This document shows, one piece after another, positions 3,225 to 55,394 of a stretch of 64,000 nt of DNA (position 1 is its first letter; the number at the start of each line of letters is the position of its first letter). The position numbers were made by a program, and so were the translations under genes. The stretch lies in sequence record MT446416.1; one strand, given 5' to 3'. Under the pieces are notes generated by a model that was given only the letters and a program-made list of their open reading frames with translations, made no database searches and had not been told where the DNA came from. The stretch comes from Escherichia virus TH47.

Positions 3225-3530
3225 TTAATATATAATCTCACTAGCTTCTGTTGTGTAAATGCCATTATCAGTCATTACCCTTACTGCAATCTTTATGTTT
3301 TTACCCATTTTGGCAACTATCAAACCAATGATAATACCATCCATCTCAAACTTATTATTTCCAGCAGGATATCTAACTTTAATTTTAATTTTATTATCAA
3401 TCAAGTATCTACGGATGATGTGGATTTCTGTTCTGAATAAATCCAAAAGAACTTCGCTCTGTTCCTTATCAGAACCATCAGCACAGCTATACAATAAATT
3501 TACTTGTTCAAATAATTTTTTTATATTCAT
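3225..3530 (-). CDS. hypothetical protein
   Basis: Minus-strand ORF abutting neighbour. Confidence 0.5.
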   Translation of the reverse strand: MNIKKLFEQVNLLYSCADGSDKEQSEVLLDLFRTEIHIIRRYLIDNKIKIKVRYPAGNNKFEMDGIIIGLIVAKMGKNIKIAVRVMTDNGIYTTEASEIIY

Positions 3531-3886
3531 AAAAAACTCACAGATTTAATATTACTAGTTGTATGTTTAAACACAGTATTATCAAACTTGTAAACAATAG
3601 TATTAAGAGATTTATAAAAATTAACATCAGTTATTACTGCTTTGGAACCATTGATTAAACACGATGATGACGGTAATTTATTTTCTAATATATTCTTTTC
3701 ATCTGAACAAAGTGTTCCAATACAATCATAATATAAAGGTTCACCAACTTTATCAGTACTAAGAAAATCGAAAGCAAGATCATCTATTAGTTTTATGTAT
3801 TTGAATAAATCTTGATAGTACTCATTCATGGTCGATCCTCTTGAATTTAGCATTATTCGAATAAGTATATGAATGTCCAAAATCAT
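3527..3886 (-). CDS. hypothetical protein
   Basis: Minus-strand ORF, 4-nt overlap with neighbour. Confidence 0.5.
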   Translation of the reverse strand: MILDIHILIRIMLNSRGSTMNEYYQDLFKYIKLIDDLAFDFLSTDKVGEPLYYDCIGTLCSDEKNILENKLPSSSCLINGSKAVITDVNFYKSLNTIVYKFDNTVFKHTTSNIKSVSFL

Positions 3887-11852: not shown

Positions 11853-12164
11853 CTACTTGAGCCATTGTCCCGCTTTGTAACAATAAAGATTCTCAAATTT
11901 AAAGTTCTCTATATCACATTCCTCACGTACTCGATTCTTGTTCCAGAATAAAATACGAATCCTTTCATAATCACGATAAACACTAATAATGCTTCTGTGT
12001 TTAGATTTATAATATTCTTTTACAATATCAAGATACATTGACCTAAGTAACGATTTCACTGGATAAGACAAATCCTGTGCCGTAGTAATAAAGTAAATCA
12101 TCTTCATTGTTTCAGCAATAAGAACTTCATTTGTTGTATTTGTCATTGTAATCCTTACATACAC
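11853..12164 (-). CDS. hypothetical protein
   Basis: Minus-strand ORF. Confidence 0.5.
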   Translation of the reverse strand: MYVRITMTNTTNEVLIAETMKMIYFITTAQDLSYPVKSLLRSMYLDIVKEYYKSKHRSIISVYRDYERIRILFWNKNRVREECDIENFKFENLYCYKAGQWLK

Positions 12165-12309
12165 TATGTAAAGTAAATCCTAAACCAACACCAACAATTG
12201 GGAATAGTAAATTAACATACCATGTGTTCATTGTTAAAAAGGAATAAGCACCTGAAGCTGTCAGTACTGCAATAGAAAAAAGACTCCAGATAAAAAATAA
12301 TGCTCTCAT
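12127..12309 (-). CDS. small membrane protein
   Basis: 60 aa with two hydrophobic segments. Confidence 0.45.
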   Translation of the reverse strand: MRALFFIWSLFSIAVLTASGAYSFLTMNTWYVNLLFPIVGVGLGFTLHSVCKDYNDKYNK

Positions 12310-12596
12310 AAAAATGTTACCTCGTTAGATGAGTAGTTACGATATATTTGTGAATTATGTTCCACACCATGAATTGTTATATGCCCGTTGTAGAAAAAAG
12401 TAATATCTACAACTTTGAGTTCTTTACGTTTTTTAGTACTGAAATATCTACCCACTAACGCAGCATATATATAATCCCTGTACTCTTGAGTAATGAATTT
12501 ATACATATTATGATTTGCACTACACTTTTCATCATAAGTATTAGTATATTCTTTCATCAGTAGAGCATATGTTTTTTGTATTAATATGATATTCAT
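12306..12596 (-). CDS. hypothetical protein, possible divergent family-B member
   Basis: Same size and position as the adjacent family-B array; N-terminus MNIILIQKTY. Confidence 0.5.
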   Translation of the reverse strand: MNIILIQKTYALLMKEYTNTYDEKCSANHNMYKFITQEYRDYIYAALVGRYFSTKKRKELKVVDITFFYNGHITIHGVEHNSQIYRNYSSNEVTFL

Positions 12597-12979
12597 CTGT
12601 AGTTTAATATTGAAATGGGAAGACTATATATATGTGCGTAAAGTTTATCAACTCTTTCCATATTCACTTTTAAAGTACTTCCAATACGACTGATGCTATC
12701 TATACGATAAAGCACGTCATTCAGCATCATTACGGTATCGGTGTAATCTTCACTAAGAGATTCAATGTAGATATCTTCAAGTTTCACATCCATGCGTGGT
12801 ATATCTAAATCCCTCAATAAACGCAGTGTTTGCACGATCAGTTCAGCTTTAGTAATGAATACGCTCACATGCCAGACAATAAATGCACTCAATGTCAGGT
12901 CGCCATGATTTATCGAAATCTTTGTGCTGTTCTTCAGTGTATTCCGCATCATCATTGATAGGAAAGAAATCCCCAGCAC
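12593..12979 (-). CDS. hypothetical protein (start probably internal, near 12793)
   Basis: ORF overlaps 12849..13049 by 131 nt; internal ATG (MDVKLEDIY) would remove the overlap. Confidence 0.4.
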   Translation of the reverse strand: MLGISFLSMMMRNTLKNSTKISINHGDLTLSAFIVWHVSVFITKAELIVQTLRLLRDLDIPRMDVKLEDIYIESLSEDYTDTVMMLNDVLYRIDSISRIGSTLKVNMERVDKLYAHIYSLPISILNYR

Positions 12980-13049
12980 CAGAGGCCCAGTCTGAATCTA
13001 AACGGAAACGAGCTAATTGAGTACTGTTGCAATATGGACATTTATTCAA
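12849..13049 (-). CDS. small zinc-ribbon protein
   Basis: CPYC ... CIYCLAC Cys pairs. Confidence 0.45.
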   Translation of the reverse strand: MNKCPYCNSTQLARFRLDSDWASGAGDFFPINDDAEYTEEQHKDFDKSWRPDIECIYCLACERIHY

Positions 13050-13326
13050 AATTTATTCCTTCTAACTGATATACGTTTAATGAAAATGACCCACTATTAT
13101 TATCGCATCTGAAACACAGTGTTAAAGAACCATTATAACTCACGACATCCGTACATATACATTTTTCACCATTGGATATGATAGATTTTCCTATATATAA
13201 ATCTCTTACTATAGTACGGTAATGTTGCCATAAAAAATAATACACACTTTCATAGTACTCATCTTTTACATATGACAAGTATAAGAATTTATAAAATACT
13301 TGTATTTCCTTTAAGTTGTTTTTCAT
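13042..13326 (-). CDS. family-B paralog
   Basis: N-terminus MKNNLKEIQVFYKFLY. Confidence 0.6.
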   Translation of the reverse strand: MKNNLKEIQVFYKFLYLSYVKDEYYESVYYFLWQHYRTIVRDLYIGKSIISNGEKCICTDVVSYNGSLTLCFRCDNNSGSFSLNVYQLEGINFE

Positions 13327-13600
13327 TCTCCAACTCCAGTAAATTTACACCAATCCAATCAACATCACTATCAGTACTTAATTCCAATCGTAGCTTACCG
13401 CTATGACTAACAATATCGCGGAATTTGTATATTTTATTATCACGAACTATACACAAATCATGGTAATATTCATGTAATTCATCCAAAAACTTTATCCATA
13501 CCGAACGATAGATTTCACCGTAGAGATATTCTCCAGCATCAACCGTAGCGTATTGGATATACAAAAATTTGTATGTGAATTGTATATCATTAATATTCAT
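13289..13600 (-). CDS. family-B paralog
   Basis: N-terminus MNINDIQFTYKFLY. Confidence 0.6.
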   Translation of the reverse strand: MNINDIQFTYKFLYIQYATVDAGEYLYGEIYRSVWIKFLDELHEYYHDLCIVRDNKIYKFRDIVSHSGKLRLELSTDSDVDWIGVNLLELENEKQLKGNTSIL

Positions 13601-13610
13601 ATGTCAACTC

Positions 13611-13922
13611 TTATAGGTCCGTTAACTTCAAAACTTTGATCTCCATAAATTCCCTATCAGTTTTTTCAAGAAATTCTACATGGATAATACCTTGATAAGA
13701 TTTTACACCTGAATATTCAAATATGTCATCTCCATCAGTGTAAGTACTGTAATTCTTTTTTATATATTCAGCAATAGAATCTAAGTAATCATAGTAATTA
13801 TTAATAAATGGTGATTCTTTTGATTCGACATGTTCACCAATCTTCCCACTAAAAAGATACATGTCATACAAACCATATATATTTTTATACGTGAATTGAA
13901 CATCATTCAAATTTAATTTCAA
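13611..13922 (-). CDS. family-B paralog
   Basis: N-terminus MKLNLNDVQFTYKNIY. Confidence 0.6.
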   Translation of the reverse strand: MKLNLNDVQFTYKNIYGLYDMYLFSGKIGEHVESKESPFINNYYDYLDSIAEYIKKNYSTYTDGDDIFEYSGVKSYQGIIHVEFLEKTDREFMEIKVLKLTDL

Positions 13923-14179
13923 GGGAATATCTCCAGAGGAACACTCGTAAATCCAAAATCAGTGTAGAACTGTACCTCTACTTTACCATCGAGCTTAATG
14001 ATTATATCTGAAAATTCTGCATGATCGTTGTTGATAATTACAGTACTGAATTTTTCTTTAATCCTCTCACGCACAGTATTAATCATTTCAATACATGTAT
14101 TTTCTAAAAATATACTATTATTTTTATCTGCTAGGTCACGAATGCACTTGAATGTTAATTGGAAATCTTTATAATTCAT
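13919..14179 (-). CDS. family-B paralog
   Basis: N-terminus MNYKDFQLTFKCI. Confidence 0.6.
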   Translation of the reverse strand: MNYKDFQLTFKCIRDLADKNNSIFLENTCIEMINTVRERIKEKFSTVIINNDHAEFSDIIIKLDGKVEVQFYTDFGFTSVPLEIFP

Positions 14180-14445
14180 ATATTCACCAAATCAACAGAG
14201 AATAAGTCGTTATCAAATTTATATGAAAGTACTAATCTACCATCAAAACTATCGACACTAAGTATCTTTCGTTTTTTCCCATTAATGAAAATTTCAGTAT
14301 CAATAAAATACTCACGTAATTCTTCTAGGTAATTTGACCATAATTTATGAGTAAACGCATATTTATTAATTGTGTTAGTACTTCTGTGATTATGGTGTAA
14401 TTTAAATAATTCCATATAAGTGAATTGTATATGTTTGTAATTCAT
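14176..14445 (-). CDS. family-B paralog
   Basis: N-terminus MNYKHIQFTYMELF; SD AAGGGGAAA upstream. Confidence 0.6.
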   Translation of the reverse strand: MNYKHIQFTYMELFKLHHNHRSTNTINKYAFTHKLWSNYLEELREYFIDTEIFINGKKRKILSVDSFDGRLVLSYKFDNDLFSVDLVNI

Positions 14446-14455
14446 ATTTCCCCTT

Positions 14456-14484
14456 ACAAAAATAGCCCGAACTTATGTCGGGCT
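14456..14484 (-). terminator. intrinsic terminator
   Basis: Perfect 7-bp stem AGCCCGA/TCGGGCT with 7-nt loop, followed on the minus strand by TTTTTGT; 8 nt after stop of 14492..15154. Confidence 0.55.
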
Positions 14485-14491
14485 ATATGTG

Positions 14492-28828: not shown

Positions 28829-29412
28829 TATTTTGGTAAAACGCGGTCAAGGTACGCTAGATCCTCATCTTGGAGGTACGTTCCATCTATTGTTATGTAA
28901 TAGTTCTTAGGGATATCACAACCTATCTTCTCGTAAATTTGCATACATGATATCACATCTTCATCACAAATGGTACTCAATTGAAACAGTACTTCATCAG
29001 TTAGCGGCACAATATCATGTTTAGATATGGGGTTGGTATTTTCATTCAAAACAACATCAAACAAACTGGGAGTATTCTTTGACGAAATGTAACGATGCTT
29101 ACTACGAATTACCATTCTCGATAGTGAAATACTGGAACTCCATCTTGGGTCCACATCTTCGTATGATAGCGAAACTAACATTTCATAATAATCTTGGAAT
29201 TTCATTGATGCATAATATGTTTTTTCCTCACCGTACATTCCAAATGATTTGAATTCAATGTCACCTACATTGTGTGTATCACTCGCACTATTCACGAAAT
29301 TTAACAGACTGTTGATTAGTCTGATTAGAATATCATCTTTATTCATTATCAGATAACTCCCTGTGCATGTCGTATAAATCTCGAAAGTCCTGATAGAAAT
29401 CTTTTTCTTCAA
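28828..29412 (-). CDS. family-A paralog
   Basis: Motif DEVLFQLSTI. Confidence 0.65.
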   Translation of the reverse strand: MKKKISIRTFEIYTTCTGSYLIMNKDDILIRLINSLLNFVNSASDTHNVGDIEFKSFGMYGEEKTYYASMKFQDYYEMLVSLSYEDVDPRWSSSISLSRMVIRSKHRYISSKNTPSLFDVVLNENTNPISKHDIVPLTDEVLFQLSTICDEDVISCMQIYEKIGCDIPKNYYITIDGTYLQDEDLAYLDRVLPK

Positions 29413-29896
29413 GAATATCTTTTAAACTAGGAATCTCAACCATAATCTCATCGATATCAGTTTCAATAGTAAAACCTGATTTATAATTTTGTAAGAGATA
29501 ACTAAAAGCAACAAGATAAAGAATTTCATTTGGTTTATGAATTAACATGTGTTGGAACATAACTGATTCTAAATCAGATTCAGTACTAAGGTCAGCATAA
29601 CATGTATCGTTGGTGTCAATTCGTACTTTACTTGAATTTGGATTCCATGTAAAGCAATGTGTTCCAACTGTTCCCAAACATCCTACTCTTGTACTATCAT
29701 TTGTTCCCAAAAAGATATCAAAATACGTTTCATCTGTATAATCGTATTTTTGTACTTTACCTTTTTTAAGGCATAAATCATTATCCTTTCGAAAAGTTTT
29801 AGATGATAGTGTATCAATGATGCACATTAATGTTTTTGCAAATGCAATACAATGACGTAATTCAAGTCTATGGAAATTATAATTAGTAAAATTCAT
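29339..29896 (-). CDS. family-A paralog
   Basis: Motif ESVMFQHMLI. Confidence 0.6.
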   Translation of the reverse strand: MNFTNYNFHRLELRHCIAFAKTLMCIIDTLSSKTFRKDNDLCLKKGKVQKYDYTDETYFDIFLGTNDSTRVGCLGTVGTHCFTWNPNSSKVRIDTNDTCYADLSTESDLESVMFQHMLIHKPNEILYLVAFSYLLQNYKSGFTIETDIDEIMVEIPSLKDILEEKDFYQDFRDLYDMHRELSDNE

Positions 29897-30435
29897 AATT
29901 GTACCTTCAATATTTTATCAGCAATTGATATAACCTTGTCATTGAATACATTACCAATCTCAATTCTTATATACATCGCAGGTGGAATCTTTCCCTGAAG
30001 TGCATAATATGTTTGTATACCTAAGTACTCATTATTTGATAATGAAAATTTGATTCTCTCCATATCTATGTCTGATGTTGGTAAATCTAGTAGTTCATGG
30101 TTGTAGTCAACATTTTCAGTGTATATCTGTTCGACGTAATTTGAATAGTCACTACTAATGTAGATACTATCATCACGGATAATTACTTTATAATTAGAAG
30201 GTTTAAACTTATCTTTAGGAGAAAAGAAGACATCATCTATCTTCTCTTCTCGGACACCGAATAACAATTTACCATCGTACTTTACATCAAGCATACTATC
30301 TAGAATAGTAATTACACAATGATCATCAATGTTATGACGTAAAGAACGAGTCTTGTATTTTGGGTTAATGAAAATTTTCATTAATTTTATACAAATGTCA
30401 GTAATGCATTTTACATTATCATTTTCTATGTACAT
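29893..30435 (-). CDS. family-A-like paralog (degenerate motif)
   Basis: Motif region ERIKFSLSNN. Confidence 0.45.
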   Translation of the reverse strand: MYIENDNVKCITDICIKLMKIFINPKYKTRSLRHNIDDHCVITILDSMLDVKYDGKLLFGVREEKIDDVFFSPKDKFKPSNYKVIIRDDSIYISSDYSNYVEQIYTENVDYNHELLDLPTSDIDMERIKFSLSNNEYLGIQTYYALQGKIPPAMYIRIEIGNVFNDKVISIADKILKVQL

Positions 30436-30913
30436 CGTAAATCCTCTTTAATTCTTTTACATTTTTAATGAATACTTTCATTGCAGAAATCTCAAAAGCT
30501 AATGATTTAAATTTGCAGTACTTTTTAAAGTACGACATAATGAATAGCATCTTGAGTTCTTTTTCTGTGTAAATTAAAGTATTTTGAAAGTAACTTTCTT
30601 CTGATAAATCATCAATAAAAGGATATATAACTCCATTTGTTCTCAAGAACATGATACCTTCACTCCATGATCTAAATGAAATGTAATCAGTCTTACCACA
30701 TTCATATAAGGAGTTTATCATTCCGTCAATCATTAAGGAGAACTCAATACTGTATCCTAATCGTTGACACTTGTATCTCTTATCTTCTTTCTTTGTAATT
30801 ACGAAGTGGCGACCCAATGAGTCTTTGTTATCGAAAATGAAATCAACTGTCTCTAAACACTCCTTAGCGAACTTCATAGTTTCTCTGTACTTTCTGTTCA
30901 TTAGTCTCTCCAA
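30419..30913 (-). CDS. family-A paralog
   Basis: Motif EESYFQNTLI. Confidence 0.65.
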   Translation of the reverse strand: MERLMNRKYRETMKFAKECLETVDFIFDNKDSLGRHFVITKKEDKRYKCQRLGYSIEFSLMIDGMINSLYECGKTDYISFRSWSEGIMFLRTNGVIYPFIDDLSEESYFQNTLIYTEKELKMLFIMSYFKKYCKFKSLAFEISAMKVFIKNVKELKRIYDVHRK

Positions 30914-31314
30914 ACTTTACCAGGGAAGTGTTTCTCGTAGAACTCATCATCACTTAACATATAATCAGGTGTTTCTACTTCTATGGGTTTGTAGAATGTT
31001 TCTGGGATGTGTGTAATTTTATTTGGTTGTACTTTATGTTCGCGTAAAACCTTCTGTATAGCTCCTAGGCGTTGTAAATCAATACAGGTGGGCAGAACTA
31101 AGCTGTACTGAAATAGCTCGTCAGGGGTCATTATAGACACATCCTTAGCTTGTTTGATTTTATTGTTGGTATCAATGAATATATCAAATCCAAGTACTGC
31201 ATTATAGCTTACATAGGTTGTTTTGTTTTTGTCAATAGCTGCACTTAAACTATATCCATATATTCCGTATCGGTCAACCATGCATCGTTGCATAATTTTA
31301 ATCATTTCGAACAT
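30901..31314 (-). CDS. family-A paralog
   Basis: Motif PDELFQYSLV. Confidence 0.65.
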   Translation of the reverse strand: MFEMIKIMQRCMVDRYGIYGYSLSAAIDKNKTTYVSYNAVLGFDIFIDTNNKIKQAKDVSIMTPDELFQYSLVLPTCIDLQRLGAIQKVLREHKVQPNKITHIPETFYKPIEVETPDYMLSDDEFYEKHFPGKVWRD

Positions 31315-31663
31315 AATTTACCTCGTATGTGTTATAATTCCACGCTTTAACACTATCCATTTGTATATCCTGAACTTCATGGAAATATTTAAGTACCTTC
31401 TGGTATTCCATTAGTTCGTACACATCTTCAGTACTGACAGTACTCTCCTGAAACAATTCCTCTTCTGATAAAGTACTATAATCAGGGATTTTTATTTCAG
31501 AATATATCTCATTTATATATGAATCATTTTGGTAAATCTGTAGATAAAACTGATTATATTCAGGGATATAGGTTACGAAATGGTTCTCGTTGAATTCATA
31601 TCTTGAAGCAAAGTATTCATTGCCATCCGTCATGTACTGAATTGTTGTAGTATTATTATGCAT
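31298..31663 (-). CDS. family-A paralog
   Basis: Motif EEELFQESTV. Confidence 0.65.
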   Translation of the reverse strand: MHNNTTTIQYMTDGNEYFASRYEFNENHFVTYIPEYNQFYLQIYQNDSYINEIYSEIKIPDYSTLSEEELFQESTVSTEDVYELMEYQKVLKYFHEVQDIQMDSVKAWNYNTYEVNYVRND

Positions 31664-32123
31664 TTAAATAATCCACACATTTATAGTATACTGCTAAATC
31701 TAAAAAGAATCGTTGTTTGTATTTGTAATGATGAAGTAGTGCACCATAAAGTAATATAGCATTAAGTACTTTTGCATCATGAATACAAGACCATTGGAAG
31801 TACATTTCTTCAGTCATAAAAACTAACTCACTATAAGGGACAAACATTGCATCTCTAAATGTATCAATGTTAATCTTTAAATCAGACCCTTGGCAATATG
31901 AAATATATTCACCTTTGTAATGAAAGTCATTATCGTCAAAGTACTCAGCATATACTTGATTGCCCCTATTATTTTTAAAGGCAAGTCTTCCTTTGGTTGA
32001 ACTGAACTCGTCATATTGGAACATTCCACCAAAAGGTTTAGGACTTCTAAACTCCTTTGCAATGCGATGAATGTTAGATGCAAATTCTAAAACACCATCG
32101 TAATCATATTCTGTTGTAATCAT
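31656..32123 (-). CDS. family-A paralog
   Basis: Motif EEMYFQWSCI. Confidence 0.65.
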   Translation of the reverse strand: MITTEYDYDGVLEFASNIHRIAKEFRSPKPFGGMFQYDEFSSTKGRLAFKNNRGNQVYAEYFDDNDFHYKGEYISYCQGSDLKINIDTFRDAMFVPYSELVFMTEEMYFQWSCIHDAKVLNAILLYGALLHHYKYKQRFFLDLAVYYKCVDYLNA

Positions 32124-32602
32124 AGACCATTTTTCTCCATGTACTCAATGATTTCATCTACGAAGTTTAAATCCATATAGAATCTATCATCTGCGTTATT
32201 GAGTTCATCTTTAAGTACTGTAAAAATTGTAGAACTAAACACGATTCTCTCATTGTACAAAGTACTGTACTGGAAGAATTCTTCTTCTGATCTAACATTA
32301 AATGTGTCATATTCATATTCATCATCATTAAATCTAGGATGATAGTACTTAAAACTATCAGATGTATGGAAACAATATGAGATAAAATCCCCTGATGGTG
32401 CATCGTCAAGTACACGAATACCACAGAAATTCTCATCTGTAGTATGCAACAAATTGCTATTCATTGACAAATAATTTTTGTACGCATAAAGTGTGCATCG
32501 TGGGAGAATTATATTCTCTTTAACTGTTACAAAGAACTTATGAAGTTTAATGATATTTTGTGCGATTTTTTGTGCATTGCTAAATGATAGGTCTTTGGAC
32601 AT
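32120..32602 (-). CDS. family-A paralog
   Basis: Motif EEEFFQYSTL. Confidence 0.65.
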   Translation of the reverse strand: MSKDLSFSNAQKIAQNIIKLHKFFVTVKENIILPRCTLYAYKNYLSMNSNLLHTTDENFCGIRVLDDAPSGDFISYCFHTSDSFKYYHPRFNDDEYEYDTFNVRSEEEFFQYSTLYNERIVFSSTIFTVLKDELNNADDRFYMDLNFVDEIIEYMEKNGL

Positions 32603-32661
32603 AGTGATATAACCCTTTACAATTAATATAAAGAGATTATATCACAAAGATTTGGAGGGTG

Positions 32662-33252
32662 TCAAGAGTTCTCACGAAGTTCTACCATTTCTTTCCATAC
32701 TAAATGGTAATCTTCTAAGTCCAGATAGAAGTCTTCATTTAAGTGCTCATATAAGTACTTGTACATGAATAGTACACCTAAATTGTATTCAGTAGTAAGC
32801 AATGATTGTTGGAAGTAGTTTTCTGCATTTAGTTCTATATCCATGAACTCGAATCTACCTAGACCTTTTAATGTACGTATCTCAACATGTGAAGTATCTG
32901 TTTTACTGAAGCACATAAATCCACCTCTAAATTCGGGATCATATTCACATTCATACTGTGCACTGTTATTATAGAAATCTCTATTACCATCCTTATCTTT
33001 TGGATTAACAACAGATACGTGAAGGTAGTCATCTTTGTACATTGTACGTTCGGGCGTTTTCACGCATTTTAACTTATTTTCTTTAATGTACTTGATAATA
33101 TCAATTATATCTTGTGCAGTACTGATTGCTGCCTCAAATGTATCCAACTTAAGATGATTGTATAGAGTTCCCTCGTTCTTTATTTTATCTAACATAAAAA
33201 CCTCATAGTTCATACATCTTTGATTTGAATTGCATTGTTCCACCAACTTCAC
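32662..33252 (-). CDS. family-A paralog
   Basis: Motif AENYFQQSLL. Confidence 0.65.
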   Translation of the reverse strand: MKLVEQCNSNQRCMNYEVFMLDKIKNEGTLYNHLKLDTFEAAISTAQDIIDIIKYIKENKLKCVKTPERTMYKDDYLHVSVVNPKDKDGNRDFYNNSAQYECEYDPEFRGGFMCFSKTDTSHVEIRTLKGLGRFEFMDIELNAENYFQQSLLTTEYNLGVLFMYKYLYEHLNEDFYLDLEDYHLVWKEMVELRENS

Positions 33253-33541
33253 ATGGATAATTTTCCATAATACGATTCAAAAGTATCTGGTACTGTTGTA
33301 GTACTTCAATTTCCAAATGTATACTACTATCCAGTACTAATGACTCCTGGAACAATTCACCTGTATCTAAACATGAAAAATCATTTATAGTTAGCATTGG
33401 CTTATCATTGGTACGCAATGTAAATGATTCCTCATTTCGGATTAATGTACAGAATTCATTATGTTTTCTGTTATAATCCATTTTAACCAATAATAACTTG
33501 GTGTGAGTTGCGTACATTATTTTTACTAATTCAGTCTTCAT
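33203..33541 (-). CDS. family-A paralog
   Basis: Motif TGELFQESLV. Confidence 0.65.
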   Translation of the reverse strand: MKTELVKIMYATHTKLLLVKMDYNRKHNEFCTLIRNEESFTLRTNDKPMLTINDFSCLDTGELFQESLVLDSSIHLEIEVLQQYQILLNRIMENYPCEVGGTMQFKSKMYEL

Positions 33542-33890
33542 AACGGAATAAAATTCTCCTGTACTGCTCCGGCTTAGTACTCAATCTCTTCACCGGATAA
33601 TTGTCGAAGATCCTTTTCATTTCTTTCTGGATTAAACAAAGAAAATCAAAATTGCAATAGTATTTTTTATCCCATACTAAACTTTCTTGAAATAACTCAT
33701 CTTCTTGCATTAGCGTAGTATCAATTGTATCTTCACGTGTATTTGAGTACGCTTCATGACATTGAAAACCATCTTCTGATAATTCTAATGTATATGCCGC
33801 CATTTCAAACATATCATCATTTGTCTTTAACGAAAGTAAACAACAAACGTATTTTTTCGTTGTGTAGTACGTAATACTAATGGTATTCAT
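33531..33890 (-). CDS. family-A paralog
   Basis: Motif EDELFQESLVWDKKY. Confidence 0.65.
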   Translation of the reverse strand: MNTISITYYTTKKYVCCLLSLKTNDDMFEMAAYTLELSEDGFQCHEAYSNTREDTIDTTLMQEDELFQESLVWDKKYYCNFDFLCLIQKEMKRIFDNYPVKRLSTKPEQYRRILFRYED

Positions 33891-33895
33891 GGCAT

Positions 33896-34498
33896 TTAAA
33901 CCTCAGTATAAAGCTTACAATAGCTTTCATCGAAATCAAAAATACTTCTCAAGAACTGACAAAGGTCAGTAAAAATATTTACATTTGCTATATACACATT
34001 ATCAAATTCTGTTCTTTCGAAGAATGTATGCATAGAATTTGTAATATATCTCATTGCAGATTCACGCTGCATTGTTATATCATTTGTGAACATTGCATCT
34101 TCATCAGTACTGACCAATTCAATATCAAATGATTTCATATATGGGATGGACCTCCCTAGTGCAAAACTATCACCATATGATGCTTCTACTGCACCTTTAG
34201 AATACACCAATTGATATAAGTCCGAAATAGGGTTATAAAAAGTACGACATATTGATGAACATAATTTATTATCTATCCAAAAGAAAACCCTATTTGAGTT
34301 TCTGTCAAATGCTATACGCAATCCATCACCATCTAACGATATATCACCATCGAGATAAAAAGAGAACTGAACTAATGCTTTTTCTAAGTCCATTCTTTTG
34401 TGATAAATGATTTCTTGCATATAGATAATATCATTTACTAATTTCTTAAAATACAAATGAACCTCAGTACTACAACATTTATTTGCATTTAATAACAT
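33896..34498 (-). CDS. family-A-like paralog (degenerate motif)
   Basis: Motif region EDAMFTNDIT. Confidence 0.45.
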   Translation of the reverse strand: MLLNANKCCSTEVHLYFKKLVNDIIYMQEIIYHKRMDLEKALVQFSFYLDGDISLDGDGLRIAFDRNSNRVFFWIDNKLCSSICRTFYNPISDLYQLVYSKGAVEASYGDSFALGRSIPYMKSFDIELVSTDEDAMFTNDITMQRESAMRYITNSMHTFFERTEFDNVYIANVNIFTDLCQFLRSIFDFDESYCKLYTEV

Positions 34499-35085
34499 AG
34501 TAGATCCTTATACATTGCATGTATTCTTACAATGTCTCTGTAATAACTCATATCTTCACGATTATCATTAAAAACAGTAACACTGAATACAGCAGTACTA
34601 ATTGAACTATCAACAATGTACTCTTTTAATTTATTATAAAGATATATGCACTTGGCAGATGTATCATCCCACATAAGACTATTTTGAAAGATGTTTTCTT
34701 CTGTGTTAGGATATAAGTACTGCTCAATCTTGTACCCCAATGAACTATCACAGTTTTTATATACAGAAATAGATGGGACATTCATATTGCACATAATACT
34801 AATAACATTATCATTGTATGTAGAAATTAAACTGGTACTGGATGCTACACTTTCATCATAATTCAGTACTGAAATTCTTGCATTATCTGTGCAGTACAGA
34901 TGTTTCATTCCACCTCTCATAGCCATAGTAAGAAATTTATCAGTGAACCATATTCCTTTTGTTTTCAGTATAGTTTCATGCATAAGATAAGTTTCAATGA
35001 AGATTTTTACACGCTCAAATGCCAAGTCAAGTTCATTGTACATAACGGATATCCTTCTGTAAAGAATCAATATATTCTTTAACAA
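34489..35085 (-). CDS. family-A paralog
   Basis: Motif EENIFQNSLM. Confidence 0.65.
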   Translation of the reverse strand: MLKNILILYRRISVMYNELDLAFERVKIFIETYLMHETILKTKGIWFTDKFLTMAMRGGMKHLYCTDNARISVLNYDESVASSTSLISTYNDNVISIMCNMNVPSISVYKNCDSSLGYKIEQYLYPNTEENIFQNSLMWDDTSAKCIYLYNKLKEYIVDSSISTAVFSVTVFNDNREDMSYYRDIVRIHAMYKDLLCY

Positions 35086-35224
35086 CTTGTTCCTGATACT
35101 GTGTGCCCAAATACATCAGTACTTTTAATTCTTTGAACTCAGTACTATATGAGTCGGTTTGCATCATTTTAGAAGAATATATATTGAATAGTTTAGCAAT
35201 ATCATCTTGGTCTATTATTTTCAT
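35033..35224 (-). CDS. family-C paralog (outlier inside family-A array)
   Basis: Motif LGTQYQEQ. Confidence 0.6.
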   Translation of the reverse strand: MKIIDQDDIAKLFNIYSSKMMQTDSYSTEFKELKVLMYLGTQYQEQVVKEYIDSLQKDIRYVQ

Positions 35225-35420
35225 ATATTCTCTTCTGGATTAGTTCCTGTAAGTGCTGAATATAACCCTTCATTGCAACATCCTGTTTGTTAGAGCCAAC
35301 GAAGAACAATAGCTTAAAGTCATGGTAATCCATTTTTGGTTTAGTAGTGAACCATATGTCCCACACTGCACTCACAGTTCTCATGTATTCAATTCGATTA
35401 AATGTTTTTGAATACTTCAT
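35202..35420 (-). CDS. family-C paralog (outlier inside family-A array)
   Basis: Motif VGSNKQDV. Confidence 0.55.
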   Translation of the reverse strand: MKYSKTFNRIEYMRTVSAVWDIWFTTKPKMDYHDFKLLFFVGSNKQDVAMKGYIQHLQELIQKRIYENNRPR

Positions 35421-35934
35421 CGATGTTCATCGCCAATAAGTTAATATACAAATTACTGTTAAATGCAATCTGCAATTCCATATAGAACTGAATGATAGCA
35501 TAGTCAGGGTCAGTACACGATAGTTGAAAACACTGTTCGTCAAATGCATTGTAATTGTACTTAGGGATGTGAATTTCACGCTTCAAATCAGGTTGACCCC
35601 ACTTCATCGCATACACACCAATGTTATTGTTCTTTTTCCTTTTCTTAAATGTTAATTGTTGAATATTTCCAGCGTTGTCTAGGAAAATAGTATTATTCGA
35701 CACAGGTGCACCAATAGAAAACAATGATGTATCAATGACGTGTTTCTCACGTATCTCACACTTCTGGAATGCACCATTCCCTTGTAACAGTTTATGGAAA
35801 TCGTACTTCTCACTAATAACTGTACTAGGAACAATTAATCCAGTACTGCATTTTTTCAGTACTGGTACGATAGTGCGAATCTTTTTTGATAAATCTTGTA
35901 ATGCATCATAATCATTAATGTTAATTTTTCTCAA
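35398..35934 (-). CDS. family-A paralog
   Basis: Motif DEQCFQLSCT. Confidence 0.65.
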   Translation of the reverse strand: MRKININDYDALQDLSKKIRTIVPVLKKCSTGLIVPSTVISEKYDFHKLLQGNGAFQKCEIREKHVIDTSLFSIGAPVSNNTIFLDNAGNIQQLTFKKRKKNNNIGVYAMKWGQPDLKREIHIPKYNYNAFDEQCFQLSCTDPDYAIIQFYMELQIAFNSNLYINLLAMNIDEVFKNI

Positions 35935-36377
35935 AAGGATGCCTCTTCTATAGTAACGAAATCAACTAACCTATCAAGTTTTTCAGTGTCTAGATAAAAT
36001 ATATCCAGTACTGACTTCTGATATAGTACACTAAATGTACATAGATTGTCAAGTGTTCCTTCATTATAAACAGTACTTCCCTGGAAGTACCCTTCTTCTG
36101 TACTCAGAGATAAAATATCAGAAATTTTAAAAGATTCTTCATACTCATGACGCTCTATCGTAACTTCATCATATTTTCTGTTCAATGAAATATAATCATA
36201 TGCTATCTCAATAGTACTACAATTATTGCCATCCGTATCAAATAAAGAATCAATTGTAATCTTCGTGCCATTAGAAACTTCTCTTAGTTCATCATCTACA
36301 TAATCAGGATAGTCCTTTAAGAACTGAACAACGCGTAGAATATCATTTGCTTTCTTGATTGCACTTTCGTAACTCAT
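35931..36377 (-). CDS. family-A paralog
   Basis: Motif EEGYFQGSTV. Confidence 0.65.
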   Translation of the reverse strand: MSYESAIKKANDILRVVQFLKDYPDYVDDELREVSNGTKITIDSLFDTDGNNCSTIEIAYDYISLNRKYDEVTIERHEYEESFKISDILSLSTEEGYFQGSTVYNEGTLDNLCTFSVLYQKSVLDIFYLDTEKLDRLVDFVTIEEASF

Positions 36378-36817
36378 TTTTTTCTGGACTCCATATATAT
36401 CACCTGATTTAGTTCATATACATAATTTAAATCAATGAATATAGAATTATTAAAGTTCTCTTTCAGAAATGCATTAAAAACTACTAAAGCTCTTAATGCA
36501 CTATTTGGGTATATAGTACTGTACTGGAAGTAAGCATCTTCTGAATTTAAGAATAGTACGTCTTCTTCGGTGAATTCAAAATATTTACCACTTTCATCGA
36601 TTGAATAGAAAGTTCCAGGATTCCATTCGAAGTACTTGAATTCCAAATCATAATCATGGGACTCGTACTTATATTCATTACCTAATCCTAGAATATCTGT
36701 ACCAACACTTATAGTACTAATATATGCCCCTTTGTCGTCTAAGTACTTTACATTATTTTGAAAGAACTTTACTATATTAACTAATTCCTCAGCGTGCTTA
36801 AGATCACTTTCGTACAT
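36374..36817 (-). CDS. family-A paralog
   Basis: Motif EDAYFQYSTI. Confidence 0.65.
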   Translation of the reverse strand: MYESDLKHAEELVNIVKFFQNNVKYLDDKGAYISTISVGTDILGLGNEYKYESHDYDLEFKYFEWNPGTFYSIDESGKYFEFTEEDVLFLNSEDAYFQYSTIYPNSALRALVVFNAFLKENFNNSIFIDLNYVYELNQVIYMESRKK

Positions 36818-37131
36818 TATATTTCAATCTCTATATATTCTTGGGTAATTAAGTAATCCCAGTAGTACTTCACTTGTTTTTGTATCTCAATTAAGGCATG
36901 AAAATTAATTCTCTTATCCCATATAAGTGATTCCTGAAAAAGAAATGTTTCATGATCATCTCTGTAATCACATTCAAGGAAGTCAGGAATATAATCACAA
37001 TCGTGAAGATATTCAATCATTAAAGATTCATTACATCTTCTAACGGCAAGGTGCTGGAAATTATCATGATCGAAGAAATACATTAAACTAATTATACCTG
37101 GAATGTACTGAATACTGTATAAGAATTTCAT
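36817..37131 (-). CDS. family-A paralog
   Basis: Motif ETFLFQESLIWDKR. Confidence 0.65.
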   Translation of the reverse strand: MKFLYSIQYIPGIISLMYFFDHDNFQHLAVRRCNESLMIEYLHDCDYIPDFLECDYRDDHETFLFQESLIWDKRINFHALIEIQKQVKYYWDYLITQEYIEIEI

Positions 37132-37571
37132 CGTTTACCCTTATATACTTCACATACATATTCATAATCCAAATAAAATCTTGTACTATCAATACTTTTA
37201 AAGTACCACATTATAACTAAAGTATCTAGTACTTCATCATCATACAAAGTACTATTCTGAAAGTAATACTCTTCACTATCCCACGGACCTTTCAGCACTT
37301 CAAAGTTCAATTTTAAAGGTCTGCTGCGATTATAAAAACGGATTTCACCACCATAAGCATAACTGATAAATTCTGCATCTGGATTGTATTGTGAAAAATC
37401 TGCGGGACTTTTGGAATTCAACCCAAGAATAACTGTAGTTGTAGCAAAATCACTATCCTTGTAGTAGTTACCATTCTCGGCTTTGTATACTTCTTCGAAC
37501 TTCCCAGCCTTGATATCTTCAATATATACCTGTAGTTCTTTTGCTTTATCCAGAGCACTTTGTAATGACAT
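37128..37571 (-). CDS. family-A paralog (MSLQSAL subfamily)
   Basis: Motif EEYYFQNSTL; shares N- and C-termini with the next three genes. Confidence 0.7.
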   Translation of the reverse strand: MSLQSALDKAKELQVYIEDIKAGKFEEVYKAENGNYYKDSDFATTTVILGLNSKSPADFSQYNPDAEFISYAYGGEIRFYNRSRPLKLNFEVLKGPWDSEEYYFQNSTLYDDEVLDTLVIMWYFKSIDSTRFYLDYEYVCEVYKGKR

Positions 37572-38037
37572 TATCTTCCCCTACAGTATTCTCTACGTAT
37601 TCATAATCGAAATAGAAACTACCAGAGCCAATACTTTTAAAGTACCACATAATTACAATAACATCTAATGCTTCTTCATTGTACACAGTACTTTGCTGGA
37701 AGTAATATTCTTCACTATCCCACGGGCCTTCCAGTACTGAATACGGAATGATTGTGTCATCATCATCGTAATCATGGCTGTAAATTATAATATCTTCATC
37801 GCTACAATAACTAATGTACTGATTGTACATATGATATTCACAGTCATCTGTATCACCCGTATCAGTGTGCAGTACTAACGTTTCTGCACATATCTCTGAC
37901 TCATCATAATCGTCACGATCTTTTACAAAAAATTCAGTATCAGATGTTTTATACACACCTGGAACTGAACCTTCTTGTACCATAATCATGTACTCATGAA
38001 TCTTCTTTGCTTCTTTCAATGCACTTTGTAACGACAT
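37546..38037 (-). CDS. family-A paralog (MSLQSAL subfamily)
   Basis: Motif EEYYFQQSTV. Confidence 0.7.
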   Translation of the reverse strand: MSLQSALKEAKKIHEYMIMVQEGSVPGVYKTSDTEFFVKDRDDYDESEICAETLVLHTDTGDTDDCEYHMYNQYISYCSDEDIIIYSHDYDDDDTIIPYSVLEGPWDSEEYYFQQSTVYNEEALDVIVIMWYFKSIGSGSFYFDYEYVENTVGEDNVITKCSG

Positions 38038-38480
38038 TACAAATCCCCTGTACTTAAATATTCACATGCTCCCCAGTCAAGAAAGAATGGATCGAAATTC
38101 AATTCCTTAAAGTACCACAACACAACCAAGGAATCAAGCATTTCTTGGTTAAAAATAAGACTCTGTTGGAAGTAATACTCTTCAGTACCCCACGGGCCGT
38201 CAAGTACCCCGAAGTCAATAGGTGTATTTGATGTGTCGAAAGTAATCTTAGTACCTGGAATATATACAAAAAAACTAGTATATTGACTACATGAAGAGTA
38301 CTGTATAGTATTGTCTTTATCATGGCCCATAAGTAAAATATCATCAGAGTATGTCTTTATACCTGATAGATAATACTCATTACCAAATGCACTTACTTTA
38401 TCACCATAGAAACCACTTTTTATGTTATCGTGGAAGTGATGTATTTTGTGGGCCAGTTTAAGTGCACTTGCTAAACTCAT
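38037..38480 (-). CDS. family-A paralog (MSLQSAL subfamily)
   Basis: Motif EEYYFQQSLI. Confidence 0.7.
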   Translation of the reverse strand: MSLASALKLAHKIHHFHDNIKSGFYGDKVSAFGNEYYLSGIKTYSDDILLMGHDKDNTIQYSSCSQYTSFFVYIPGTKITFDTSNTPIDFGVLDGPWGTEEYYFQQSLIFNQEMLDSLVVLWYFKELNFDPFFLDWGACEYLSTGDL

Positions 38481-38947
38481 ATATCCTCTTTAATAACTCG
38501 TAGTAGATCCAAGTCCAGATAGAAGCTAGGACAATCGGTATTATTAAAGTACCACAGAATGACAAGCTTGTCAAGCACATATTCCTCGTAGATAGTATTC
38601 TGCTGGAAGTAGAACTCTTCACTTCCCCAGTCATTATCCAGTACTGAATACGGAAGATGTTTTTCTGCTGCACCAGTTATAATGTCAGTATATTGTATTA
38701 AAATATCAGCATCACGACAGAAGCACATGTAATTATCTTCCAGATTAACATCACACCCAGTGAGTGTTGTTTCAGAAGAATCTAAGTTTTCTTCGTACAT
38801 GTGAATGTACTCACTACTGTCATCGTATATCATTCGACAATAAGCTTTACCTTCCTTGAATAGATACCCATTGAGTCGATTGAGTACTATTTCCTTTTTA
38901 CATAAATCAATTAACTTAGCAATTTCTAATGCTCTTGCAAAACTCAT
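38477..38947 (-). CDS. family-A paralog (MSLQSAL subfamily)
   Basis: Motif EEFYFQQNTI. Confidence 0.7.
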   Translation of the reverse strand: MSFARALEIAKLIDLCKKEIVLNRLNGYLFKEGKAYCRMIYDDSSEYIHMYEENLDSSETTLTGCDVNLEDNYMCFCRDADILIQYTDIITGAAEKHLPYSVLDNDWGSEEFYFQQNTIYEEYVLDKLVILWYFNNTDCPSFYLDLDLLRVIKEDI

Positions 38948-38948
38948 A

Positions 38949-39134
38949 TCAACTCCTGTGTTGTGTCTTGATATAATCTCGGTACACCATGTGAATATTA
39001 GCTATATACAATTCACTAATATCATATGTACCGAAGTACATGTCATTCCTAATGCTGTTGTTATGTCTAATATCAATTACGAATCGTCGAAGTATTGTAT
39101 TCATGAATGATTCCATTTGTTCTTTTTTATTCAT
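38949..39134 (-). CDS. hypothetical small protein
   Basis: 61-aa ORF between family-A genes. Confidence 0.4.
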   Translation of the reverse strand: MNKKEQMESFMNTILRRFVIDIRHNNSIRNDMYFGTYDISELYIANIHMVYRDYIKTQHRS

Positions 39135-39475
39135 AGCTTAAAACAATACCTATCTTTGGAATCAGTCTCTATACAGATTCTTCTATATTCTTTCATCTTC
39201 TGTTGGAGTTCAATTACTTCCTCTAGTGTACACAAGTACTTCTTGTCAAATATTAATGACTCTTGAAATATTTCAGCCTCACCCTGTACTGTTGTATAGT
39301 CTTTCATATTTTCTACAACTGTTCCTTTGGTCTGATAATCAATGAAGCTAAAGTAAGAACCATTAAATTTAATGTACTGATCCATTTTGTGTTCATAATC
39401 ACCTTTGTTAAGATTGCAATACACTTCCAGTGAAGTACTAATCTTAGGTATAAACATAGAAAAATCAAATGTCAT
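39131..39475 (-). CDS. family-A paralog (CNLNKGD subfamily)
   Basis: Motif EAEIFQESLIFDKKY. Confidence 0.7.
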   Translation of the reverse strand: MTFDFSMFIPKISTSLEVYCNLNKGDYEHKMDQYIKFNGSYFSFIDYQTKGTVVENMKDYTTVQGEAEIFQESLIFDKKYLCTLEEVIELQQKMKEYRRICIETDSKDRYCFKL

Positions 39476-39831
39476 TCTGGAATTCCTATATTGAATTTGT
39501 ATTCTTGATTAATACTGACATTGCCTTTATTCAAAGCAGCATACTCTTTTATTTCATTTTGTATAGCAATTACTTCTTCAAATGTACACAAGTACTTCTT
39601 ATCAAATACTAATGACTCCTGGAATAGTTCAGCGGCATCCAGTACTGTATAATCCGGCATATCCTGATGCGGATACTGTAATGAATTGTAATCAATGAAT
39701 GTAAATTTACCCTGAGTGTAATGAATGTACTCATTTGCACTGTGCATTAAATCACCTTTGTTTAAATTACAAAAGTACTGAAAACTGTTCTTAAAAGAAT
39801 GTACTGATATTACAAAATCAAATTCCATCAC
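39472..39831 (-). CDS. family-A paralog (CNLNKGD subfamily)
   Basis: Motif AAELFQESLVFDKKY. Confidence 0.7.
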   Translation of the reverse strand: MMEFDFVISVHSFKNSFQYFCNLNKGDLMHSANEYIHYTQGKFTFIDYNSLQYPHQDMPDYTVLDAAELFQESLVFDKKYLCTFEEVIAIQNEIKEYAALNKGNVSINQEYKFNIGIPE

Positions 39832-49425: not shown

Positions 49426-49690
49426 ATTTCTCTTTATTAGCTTGTTTGGTTTTATAGTGAATGAAATCTATTAATGTAATCAAGTACAACGTCAAATAGT
49501 ACTCTTGTTGATCTGTACCTAATGATACAAAGAACTTGTGCTCATAGATTAAAACCTGTTTCTCTTCAAATGGACATTTAATCCTCTGTATAGGCTTAAG
49601 TAAATGATAGTACTTATTAAATCTATGATACATTTCTAGTTCTGTCAGTACTTTCATATTAAACACATACTCCATTAGCAGTAGCATCAC
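49415..49690 (-). CDS. family-C paralog
   Basis: Motif LGTDQQEY. Confidence 0.6.
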   Translation of the reverse strand: MMLLLMEYVFNMKVLTELEMYHRFNKYYHLLKPIQRIKCPFEEKQVLIYEHKFFVSLGTDQQEYYLTLYLITLIDFIHYKTKQANKEKYEN

Positions 49691-49880
49691 GTAAAGCTGT
49701 CAAATACTTCTGTACGGCTTGCTCTTGCTTATTTGTACCTAAAAGTATATACATCCATAATTCACTGTAATGTACATCTTGTGTATAAGGGTTGTTGTAA
49801 CTTTTTGATACTATAACATCAAATTCAGATGCATGAACCCTTGTGAACTTAAGAATATCTTTTTGTGTTATGATTCTCAT
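49659..49880 (-). CDS. family-C paralog
   Basis: Motif LGTNKQEQ. Confidence 0.65.
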   Translation of the reverse strand: MRIITQKDILKFTRVHASEFDVIVSKSYNNPYTQDVHYSELWMYILLGTNKQEQAVQKYLTALRDATANGVCV

Positions 49881-50092
49881 ATCTTTTCCTGTATAAGCTT
49901 CTTAAGAATCTCAATATGTGAATTAACAGTTCTTTATTGATGTTGTGTTCCTAAGAGTGTCAGTACTATCATCTCTGAACGCAAAAGATTTTTTTCAAGT
50001 TCACTGATATCAGTTCTTGTATCAAGTACTAAAAATTCTTGACTATTTTTTCTGAATAATGCCAAGTACTCTTGGTTTGATATTACCTTCAT
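49877..50092 (-). pseudogene. family-C copy interrupted by an in-frame TAA
   Basis: ATG at 50090-50092 (ATGA overlap with upstream stop) reads MKVISNQEYLALFRKNSQEFLVLDTRTDISELEKNLLRSEMIVLTLLGTQHQ then TAA at 49934-49936, then in frame RTVNSHIEILKKLIQEKI to TGA at 49877; neighbour has QERFVNEHIRALL at the same place. Confidence 0.55.
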
Positions 50093-50319
50093 AGTTTATC
50101 CCTGATGCCATTTAAAAGTGCTCTAATATGCTCATTGACAAAACGCTCTTGGGAATCTGTGTCTAGGGTGAGAAGCATTCTTAAATCTGAACTTTTGATA
50201 TGATATTCTAAATCATTATTTGATTCTTGCATCAGTTTCTGAAAGGATGAGAAGTTTGCTGCCATTAGTTCAATGTATTCTGCTGTTCCTAGGGGTTTGT
50301 GTATGTGCTGTCTGTGCAT
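50089..50319 (-). CDS. family-C paralog
   Basis: Motif LDTDSQER. Confidence 0.6.
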   Translation of the reverse strand: MHRQHIHKPLGTAEYIELMAANFSSFQKLMQESNNDLEYHIKSSDLRMLLTLDTDSQERFVNEHIRALLNGIRDKL

Positions 50320-50531
50320 TTTAATTGTATTACCCTTTTGAGTGTATTAATGTAATTATACACATTGGCTTCTTGATAGTTAGTTCCTAGAGTAGCTTGA
50401 ACGTAGATTTCATTTAACTTAATAATTTTATCCGTATCTGGTAGTTTTGATGTGTTAATGGCAAATAACTTCAAAAACAGTCCATTTATGATTGTTCTGT
50501 ATTCTTCTCCGGTAATGATTCGCATTTGCAT
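50289..50531 (-). CDS. family-C paralog
   Basis: Motif LGTNYQEA. Confidence 0.65.
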   Translation of the reverse strand: MQMRIITGEEYRTIINGLFLKLFAINTSKLPDTDKIIKLNEIYVQATLGTNYQEANVYNYINTLKRVIQLKCTDSTYTNP

Positions 50532-50737
50532 GTTCTCAGTACTGATTCTTTAAGTTCATTGATGTAGCACTCTACATATTCTTCTTGTAGGTTTGTTCCG
50601 ATATGTAACAGTACTCTTAAATCTGCTCTCAGTACTTCTTTGTCATCTTCATCTATATCAGACAGTGTTATGTTTAAGAATTTACTTGAACTCTCTATAA
50701 GTAATATTACTGAATCACCTTTGCTTAAAATTTTCAT
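50486..50737 (-). CDS. family-C paralog
   Basis: Motif IGTNLQEE. Confidence 0.65.
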   Translation of the reverse strand: MKILSKGDSVILLIESSSKFLNITLSDIDEDDKEVLRADLRVLLHIGTNLQEEYVECYINELKESVLRTCKCESLPEKNTEQS

Positions 50738-50945
50738 AATCTCTTTTTGCTTTCCTCGCCAAAAGGTACATATACGATTCTTCGTATTGTGCTTGGTAGT
50801 TTGTGTTTAAGAGTCGAAACAACTTCTGTTCTGCTAGAACGAGTTGCTTATCTTCATAACAACGATAGCGTATCAACTTTTTGTATTCGATGTTGATTAC
50901 ATCCATTACTATAAGCCTATGTTCATCATCAGTCAAGTGTTTCAT
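50715..50945 (-). CDS. family-C paralog
   Basis: Motif LNTNYQAQ. Confidence 0.6.
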   Translation of the reverse strand: MKHLTDDEHRLIVMDVINIEYKKLIRYRCYEDKQLVLAEQKLFRLLNTNYQAQYEESYMYLLARKAKRDYENFKQR

Positions 50946-55364: not shown

Positions 55365-55394
55365 AGGGACTCCATTAAAAATAATATCAATCCT

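Follow-up and report, generated by a model that had tools for sequence, protein, structure and literature searches.

The 64,000-nucleotide stretch of Escherichia virus TH47 analyzed here in its full length (sequence record MT446416.1; referred to below as the window) carries on its minus strand a tandem array of small genes, family B, whose products share an N-terminal motif, MNxxDIQFTYK (Table 1). An earlier note, made from the DNA letters alone, had proposed five clear copies of 86-103 amino acids (aa) and a possible sixth within positions 12306-14445. The open reading frames (ORFs) of the five, B1 to B5, are present where they had been placed, all on the minus strand, and together with the sixth, B6, they lie inside that interval, which also takes in two ORFs that are not clear members, a Zn-ribbon protein gene and gene X. 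The array is part of a larger unit: from 14445 to 11853 (-), ten genes, B1 to Y, form one tightly packed, largely overlapping block. Besides the shared codons and the 38-nucleotide (nt) overlap listed in Table 1, the overlaps amount to 8 nt (B5/Zn-ribbon and Zn-ribbon/X), 4 nt (X/B6 and B6/60-aa hydrophobic protein) and 20 nt (hydrophobic protein gene/Y), and B3 and B4 are 10 nt apart. To judge from nucleotide similarity, the window is DNA of an Asteriusvirus-type jumbo coliphage (121Q/PBECO4 group). A 3.2-kb query spanning the array matches about 34 genomes of jumbo coliphages and Salmonella phages, 310-386 kb in size (121Q, PBECO4, phAPEC6, WPEC5 group), whose taxonomy line, where the record has one, reads Asteriusvirus; identity is 95-97% for the closest relatives and 82-87% for the others, with a ceiling of 97.2% among deposited genomes. 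All genes under this match are annotated as hypothetical protein in the related records, and in the literature on Asteriusvirus genomes we found no earlier description of family B.

Sequence comparisons show that B1-B5 are protein homologues over their whole length. Both approaches that the earlier note had named for checking the family, pairwise alignment and hidden Markov model (HMM) searches, link the five copies. In phmmer comparisons against the background of the 576 ORFs of the window, B1, B3, B4 and B5 match one another at E-values of 1e-5 to 5e-8 (B1 to B4 and B5 at about 1e-6), and B2 matches B3 at 3e-3. When one group of paralogs at a time was left out and the profile was built from the remaining groups, the full-length copies were recovered at E-values between 5e-8 and 2e-23 (B1, 2e-23; B5, 8e-18; B3, 5e-11; B2, 5e-8). 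When model and target were both trimmed of their first 15 residues, every copy was still recovered (B1, 3e-20; B5, 5e-16; B4, 2e-13; B3, 7e-8; B2, 8e-4), and the similarity therefore extends past the MNxxDIQFTYK start; an absence of similarity beyond the first 12 residues, which the earlier note had specified as the outcome that would speak against the family, is not what is observed. A resemblance confined to the N-terminal motif or to a nucleotide-level signal, among ORFs that are not homologous proteins, could be argued from the 13 identical nucleotides that B1 and B4 share across the motif, ATATACAATTCAC, and from a promoter-like match that overlaps the B4 start. The profiles lacking the first 15 residues (E-values of 8e-4 to 3e-20) refute the motif-only reading, the paralogs differ synonymously inside the motif, and the predicted folds concur, so that this explanation is almost certainly wrong.

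Table 1. Family B, the surrounding gene block and other features on the minus strand of the window
Feature	Position	Strand	Description
Terminator-like hairpin	14462-14486	-	ATAGCCCGAC-ATAAGT-TCGGGCTAT followed by TTTTTG; from pattern scan and sequence
B1	14176-14445	-	89 aa (MNYKHIQFTYMELF...); family member
B2	13919-14179	-	86 aa; family member; ATG overlaps B1 stop codon (ATGA)
B3	13611-13922	-	103 aa; family member; TTG start overlaps B2 stop codon (TTGA)
B4	13289-13600	-	103 aa; family member; C-terminal tail overlaps B5 start by 38 nt
B5	13042-13326	-	94 aa; family member; unannotated in several deposited relatives
Zn-ribbon protein gene	12849-13049	-	66 aa, CxxC...CxxC, TTG start; within block, not a family member
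Gene X	12593-12856	-	87 aa; possible degenerate family member
B6	12306-12596	-	96 aa; divergent family member
Small hydrophobic protein gene	12127-12309	-	60 aa; in block, not a family member; maximum 19-residue hydropathy 1.88
Gene Y	11853-12146	-	97 aa; last gene of packed block; possible very distant relative, not significant
B0	3527-3829	-	100 aa (MNEYYQDLFKYIKLI...); probable dispersed family member, 9 kb off the array
B0'	3225-3530	-	101 aa; adjoins B0; borderline relative
Paralog family	47330-55418 and 35033-35426	-	29 members, ~70-100 aa
Paralog family	24966-49467	-	17 members
Paralog family	29339-46653	-	15 members, 150-200 aa

The family was finally represented by an alignment of 32 sequences, comprising orthologues and divergent relatives; an earlier profile held 22 sequences and the smallest HMM the five copies only. 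Conservation in this alignment bears out the signature noted earlier, with peaks at M1, N2, D5, I6, Q7, F8, T9, Y10, K11, L13, Y14 and Y17; further peaks are W35 and L39 in helix 2 and V63-x-S65-Y-x-G68 in a β-hairpin or turn, and the highest values fall on the first 14 residues, in helix 1. No conserved set of polar residues of catalytic type is present in the family alignment. In the PHROGs collection, the same proteins are found as phrog_21004, phrog_32291, phrog_35943, phrog_28826 and phrog_28558, all labeled as of unknown function. B3 and B4 are core members of phrog_21004 (3e-35 and 3e-44), which B1, B2 and B5 match weakly (1e-5, 6e-5 and 7e-5); B1, B3, B4 and B5 cover nearly the whole 101-position profile, and B2 covers positions 38-91. 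B1 and B2 have best matches of their own (phrog_32291 at 7e-27 and phrog_35943 at 1e-44), and B6 and B0, which do not match phrog_21004, likewise have a PHROG each. The paralogs are thus split there over at least five families without a function, whereas here B1-B6, and probably B0, are united in one family with one predicted fold.

Structure prediction with AlphaFold2 (AF2) gave a model of B4 with a predicted local distance difference test (pLDDT) score of 80 and a predicted template modeling score of 0.70, consisting of helices at residues 3-21 and 28-45 and strands at 50-53, 56-66, 69-75 and 82-86. The fold so predicted is an N-terminal two-helix hairpin set against a four-stranded antiparallel sheet. 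The independently computed models of B4 and B6 have the same order of two helices and four strands, and their reciprocal matches in the BFVD database of viral protein models have template modeling (TM) scores of 0.61-0.87. Comparison with solved structures gave no significant fold match, and BFVD returned only the family itself and weak, uncharacterized neighbors. Among the latter, three proteins of Klebsiella phage RaK2, a related jumbo lineage (H6X4J9, H6X4K0 and H6X4R2), are of similar size and are weak structural neighbors of both models (Foldseek E-values of 0.01-0.06, TM scores of 0.43-0.60), with no sequence similarity to the family in an exhaustive profile search. The family proteins are soluble and without a hydrophobic segment; isoelectric points (pI) range from 4.7 to 9.0 and net charges from -7 to +3.

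The possible sixth copy of the earlier note is B6, which is a real, if divergent, member of the family. It was missed by the pairwise search and by the five-sequence HMM. The 22-sequence HMM finds it with an E-value of 5.7e-5 (18.7 bits; profile positions 2-75), a score reached by none of 28,800 shuffled window ORFs, and B6 orthologues from five other phages obtain 1e-4 with the family HMM. Profile-profile comparison with hhalign gave a P-value of 1.6e-5 over 78 columns, and of 1.4e-7 against the 32-sequence family alignment. An AF2 model computed from the seven orthologues of B6 only (pLDDT 90.5; helices 3-19 and 27-47, strands 51-53, 60-67, 73-79 and 85-89) reproduces the topology. It superposes with TM scores of 0.81/0.87 on an 89-aa Asteriusvirus protein, A0A411BGM0, which is B1-type by length only, and also retrieves the 121Q orthologue of B5 from BFVD (E-value 2e-3); the B4 model in turn retrieves the BFVD model of a phage slurp01 protein confirmed as the B6 orthologue (E-value 2e-3, TM scores 0.61/0.65). 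An identity with PF25742, Phage_Gene33, was considered and rejected: B6 reaches 16.9 bits (E-value 0.008), below the gathering threshold of 27 bits, E-values of about 0.007 are obtained for three of its seven orthologues and no match for any of the 22 B0-B5 sequences, so that the resemblance lies under the cut-off and is not common to the copies. In phages JNE01 and Turkey5 (loci L003 and L004, 6427-6717 and 6714-7247), the position of B6 is occupied not by its orthologue but by another divergent member, with a canonical KDIEFTTKVLY motif and a family HMM E-value of 1e-6; gene Y is present twice in these phages.

Outside the array, the search for the family elsewhere that the earlier note had suggested turned up a probable copy, B0, at a second locus. 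Its support is mixed: in phmmer it matches B5 (4.5e-4) and B1 (1.5e-3), and the five-copy HMM finds it at 1.2e-4; the weaker tests are the leave-one-out profiles, with E-values of 3e-3 to 5e-3, and hhalign against the rest, with a P-value of 6e-3. The adjoining B0' is a borderline further member, with HMM E-values of 0.009 (window) and 0.023 (whole genome of phage Turkey3), an hhalign P-value of 1.2e-4 among 118 tests, and an alignment to the family mainly in its N-terminal half. The shuffled ORFs show that, at the level at which X and Y score, HMMER E-values come out about ten times too small. Gene X, with a family HMM E-value of 0.17 (1.4 such hits are expected per window by shuffling), is not significant. 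The versions of phages A4, 121Q and UE-S1 reach 3e-3 to 5e-3, and the X profile aligns with the helix 2/hairpin region (hhalign P-value of 7e-5 over 42 columns), which is suggestive; X may be a degenerate member. Gene Y has an HMM E-value of 0.005 (shuffling predicts 0.06 hits of this kind per window), an hhalign P-value of 4e-3 among 118 tests, and phrog_32563 as its best PHROG. By these measures the membership of X and Y is not established in the window, and among the 118 small minus-strand ORFs of the window covered by the hhalign survey nothing further comes near significance. The usual start codon of X (MTKAELIVQ...), an ATG in WPEC5, ph0011, Turkey3 and JNE01, is ATT here, at 12854-12856 (-), and X may in this genome be untranslated or start at the rare AUU or at a downstream GTG (12835). 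In both Salmonella phages SD-6_S16 and SD-15_S21, X and B6 lie in a single stop-free frame of 167-171 codons.

At the sequence level, the family is limited to Asteriusvirus-type Escherichia and Salmonella phages, where it occupies two loci separated by about 7-9 kb. Searched exhaustively with hmmsearch, 1.84 billion representative proteins yielded 18 hits at E-values of 1e-3 or below; 17 of these belong to the array or the B0 locus in Asteriusvirus-type genomes, or to metagenomic relatives that are slightly more distant. The remaining hit, P0043, is a 1243-aa repeat protein with 13 near-identical units of about 77 aa (...FNVLSNRDGKLKIKVKDNNNSFQGTVEITYS...). It is hit 13 times on the β-hairpin part of the family profile; its summed E-value of 2e-5 is probably a compositional effect or a sum of weak matches, and we do not count it as a homologue. 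Matches in tblastn were restricted to Escherichia and Salmonella phages, a locus search of IMG/VR with B5 returned 121Q only, and a six-frame scan of the whole Turkey3 genome (361,208 bp; 3,214 ORFs) found only B1-B5, B0, B6 (4.8e-4) and B0' (0.023). From Rak2-like jumbo phages the family is absent at the sequence level in the exhaustive profile search. In sequence records, the title 'hypothetical protein [Escherichia coli]' is carried by many members of the family, encoded on contigs about 350 kb long (clusters P0002, P0013, P0064 and others), and these contigs appear to be complete phage genomes within bacterial assemblies.

Directly upstream of B1, where the earlier note had placed an intrinsic terminator, the sequence contains the corresponding elements: a hairpin with a 9-bp stem that includes five GC pairs, a loop of 7 nt and a following T-run, TTTTTG. 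In a comparison of the hairpin and the array layout across 11 related genomes, the GC-rich core and the T-run are at the same place in all 11, and the loops differ in the divergent A4 and JNE01. A 220-aa gene upstream of the hairpin ends at 14492 (-). The ATG of B1 lies about 16 nt downstream of the hairpin, with a ribosome-binding site, AAGGGG, in between, a gap too short for a promoter ahead of that site. Since a promoter cannot fit between the hairpin and B1, expression of the block by read-through is suggested, and the genes would then probably be expressed as an attenuated or delayed unit; the overlapping stop and start codons further suggest translational coupling. The promoter-like match at the B4 start is sigma-70-like and near-consensus, TTGACA-17-TACAAT (11/12), at 13579-13607 (-). 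It straddles the start codon, and its -10 element lies where the conserved DIQF motif is encoded; promoter-like matches are rarer in this region than in shuffled sequence, and this one may be due to chance.

The Zn-ribbon protein gene embedded in the block is its most conserved gene, with 95-97% aa identity in five relatives including A4, a ratio of nonsynonymous to synonymous divergence (dN/dS) of 0.07-0.14, and a match to phrog_22354 at 3e-47. In WPEC5 and phAPEC6, a long overlapping ORF in a different frame (120-128 aa) is annotated in its place. B5, the best-scoring family member, is unannotated in Turkey3 (L007, 16515-16755), phAPEC6 (L018, 2112-2446) and UE-S1 (L011, 2812-3052), with its ORF intact. 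The neighbors of the block encode RNA ligase 1, polynucleotide kinase, Dam methylase, cytidylyltransferase, phosphatases and DNA ligase, and the T4 counterparts of these genes have early, metabolic or counter-defense functions.

The copies are 18-33% identical to one another in amino acid sequence, which implies that the duplications are old, and most of them have recognizable counterparts across most Asteriusvirus genomes examined. Compared with relatives, dN/dS is 0.04-0.66 wherever dS exceeds 0.02 (0.05-0.5 for B5), indicating that the genes are coding and constrained by purifying selection; at similar divergence, B1, B4 and B5 have values of 0.28-0.53 against 0.06-0.16 for flanking genes and hence evolve faster. 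Divergence along the array is mosaic. In WPEC5, B4 is about 70% identical and the remaining region is 92-100% identical to the window; in the comparison with 121Q, dS is 0.01-0.06 for B4 and B5 and about 1.1 for B1, B3 and the upstream gene; and in A4, B5 and the Zn-ribbon gene have 94-97% nucleotide identity against 37-60% for B1-B4. Types B2 and B3 are missing from A4, which carries three copies of type B1. Most genomes have five copies; JNE01 and Turkey5 have three, and Salmonella phage SD-6_S16, with B2 and B3 fused to one chimera (P0033; L009, 2200-2490), has four. SD-15_S21 carries a truncated B3 (P0031; L010, 2189-2416). Taken together, the sequence patterns are those of old duplication, after which the array evolved by birth-and-death, by fusion of paralogs and by the swapping of single cassettes among relatives that co-infect. 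In the poxvirus 'gene accordion' (K3L), near-identical, recent tandem copies of one accessory gene differ in number between related viruses. Family B resembles it in being a tandem array of varying copy number and differs in that the copies are diverged and mostly have counterparts across the genus; a recent amplification of the accordion type is thus rejected on the 18-33% identity of the copies, which are not near-identical, no DNA-level repeat search having been made.

The suggestion in the earlier note that small genes have been amplified at more than one locus holds for family B itself, with the array and the probable copy B0, and for the window at large, in which an all-versus-all comparison of minus-strand ORFs revealed three larger paralog families of 29, 17 and 15 members that together occupy much of the 25-55 kb stretch. 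A kinship of family B with these three was considered and rejected (hhalign P-values of 0.11-0.89). Further large paralog arrays exist in the genus: beyond the part of its genome that corresponds to the window, Turkey3 carries at 337-357 kb (L016, 37098-50000; L017, 1-7400) about 17 tandem genes of some 300-450 aa, mostly annotated as 'E3 ubiquitin-protein ligase HERC1' and in a few cases as NS1A-binding protein or regulator of chromosome condensation, followed by an array of ten ORFs of 59-75 aa (L017, 7503-9491). Comparable expansions have been described in other jumbo phages: phage CBB has 22 paralogous ORFs (PMC5259590), and in Bacillus phage G a Zn-ribbon is present in about 35 copies (PMC7824862). 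There, too, small genes without an assigned role are multiplied within one jumbo lineage, often side by side; family B belongs to another protein family with another fold, is small (6-7 copies at two loci) and is strongly diverged. It is a lineage-restricted, uncharacterized accessory family of a familiar evolutionary type, and its pattern is fairly ordinary for accessory genes of phages and not surprising in itself.

What the proteins do has to be approached from context and evolutionary pattern rather than from homology. On this basis we favor, with a probability of roughly 35-40%, a role as small intracellular binding proteins diversified for host takeover or counter-defense. They would most likely be non-enzymatic binders made inside the infected cell, with helix 1 (MNxxDIQFTYKxLY) and the V-x-S-Y-x-G hairpin conserved and the remaining surface variable; this combination leads us to propose that the paralogs engage different host targets. 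The published virion proteome of phAPEC6 (62 proteins; PMC7247149, Table 1) contains none of gp383c-gp390c, so that the family counterparts gp384c and gp386c-gp389c are absent from it, with the limits that small proteins can escape mass spectrometry and that the B5 counterpart, being unannotated in phAPEC6, was undetectable in that proteome. Several points weigh against a role in host takeover or counter-defense. Overall dN/dS is below 1 and gives no direct indication of positive selection; profile searches of Pfam, NCBIfam, PADLOC and the sequences of the PDB gave nothing above threshold; no transcriptome for the genus Asteriusvirus was found in the literature, and hence the timing of expression and the read-through are inferred; and all copies have their most conserved part in common, which could equally mean one shared partner. 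DNA-mimic anti-restriction proteins of the Ocr, ArdA and Arn type are strongly and uniformly acidic. Membership in that class is rejected for family B, the copies not being uniformly acidic over the range of pI and charge given above, and this too counts against an anti-defense function. A bolder version, which we put forward only tentatively, is that the family constitutes a previously unrecognized class of small inhibitors with a fold unseen among solved structures, each paralog acting against a different host factor or defense system, with cassette swaps tracking host immunity and the N-terminal helix serving as a common effector or docking element.

The chief rival explanation, which we consider unlikely though deserving of attention, is that the proteins work for the phage's own program, as small regulators, adaptors or chaperones; conserved helix 1 would bind a phage partner common to all of them, and the paralogs would tune timing or specificity. 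A common partner fits the concentration of the strongest conservation in one contiguous N-terminal motif, and the highly conserved Zn-ribbon protein of the block could be that partner; the retention of five copies in most genomes examined and the purifying selection are also in keeping with it. Components of a core process would, on the other hand, not usually vary between close phages as these copies do (three to five copies, chimeras, replaced cassettes), and the family is lacking, at the sequence level, in the related Rak2-like jumbo phages. In a different and rather improbable explanation, the copies are largely dispensable duplication products of a plastic region, a gene nursery kept mainly by linkage and with little specific function. 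The region is indeed full of paralog families, truncated and fused copies (P0031, P0033) occur in propagated isolates, X has lost its ATG here, and several copies are unannotated in relatives; dN/dS of 0.04-0.66 is nevertheless not close to 1, the ORFs are intact and their predicted folds confident, and most copies persist across genomes in which synonymous sites are saturated (dS of about 1 or more). The 60-aa hydrophobic protein and the Zn-ribbon protein embedded in the block, an arrangement kept in 11 of 11 genomes, would suit an exclusion or immunity module formed by these two and the family, for instance against superinfecting phages, or a set of toxin-antidote pairs. We regard this as the least probable of the functional explanations, as the family proteins have no membrane segment, do not match defense or toxin families, and shift in copy number without a matching change in the putative partners.

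More than 80% of jumbo-phage genes are of unknown function, and in phAPEC6 the figure is 83% (PMC7247149). Obvious places in which to search for host-takeover and anti-defense factors are families that combine multiplication, fast evolution and cassette exchange. On present evidence, family B is one more uncharacterized accessory family. What has been gained is a cleaned-up definition of the family that includes unannotated and misannotated members, a confident fold prediction and a map of variation among strains; together these make deletion or pull-down work straightforward and render the family a reasonable candidate for functional screening.

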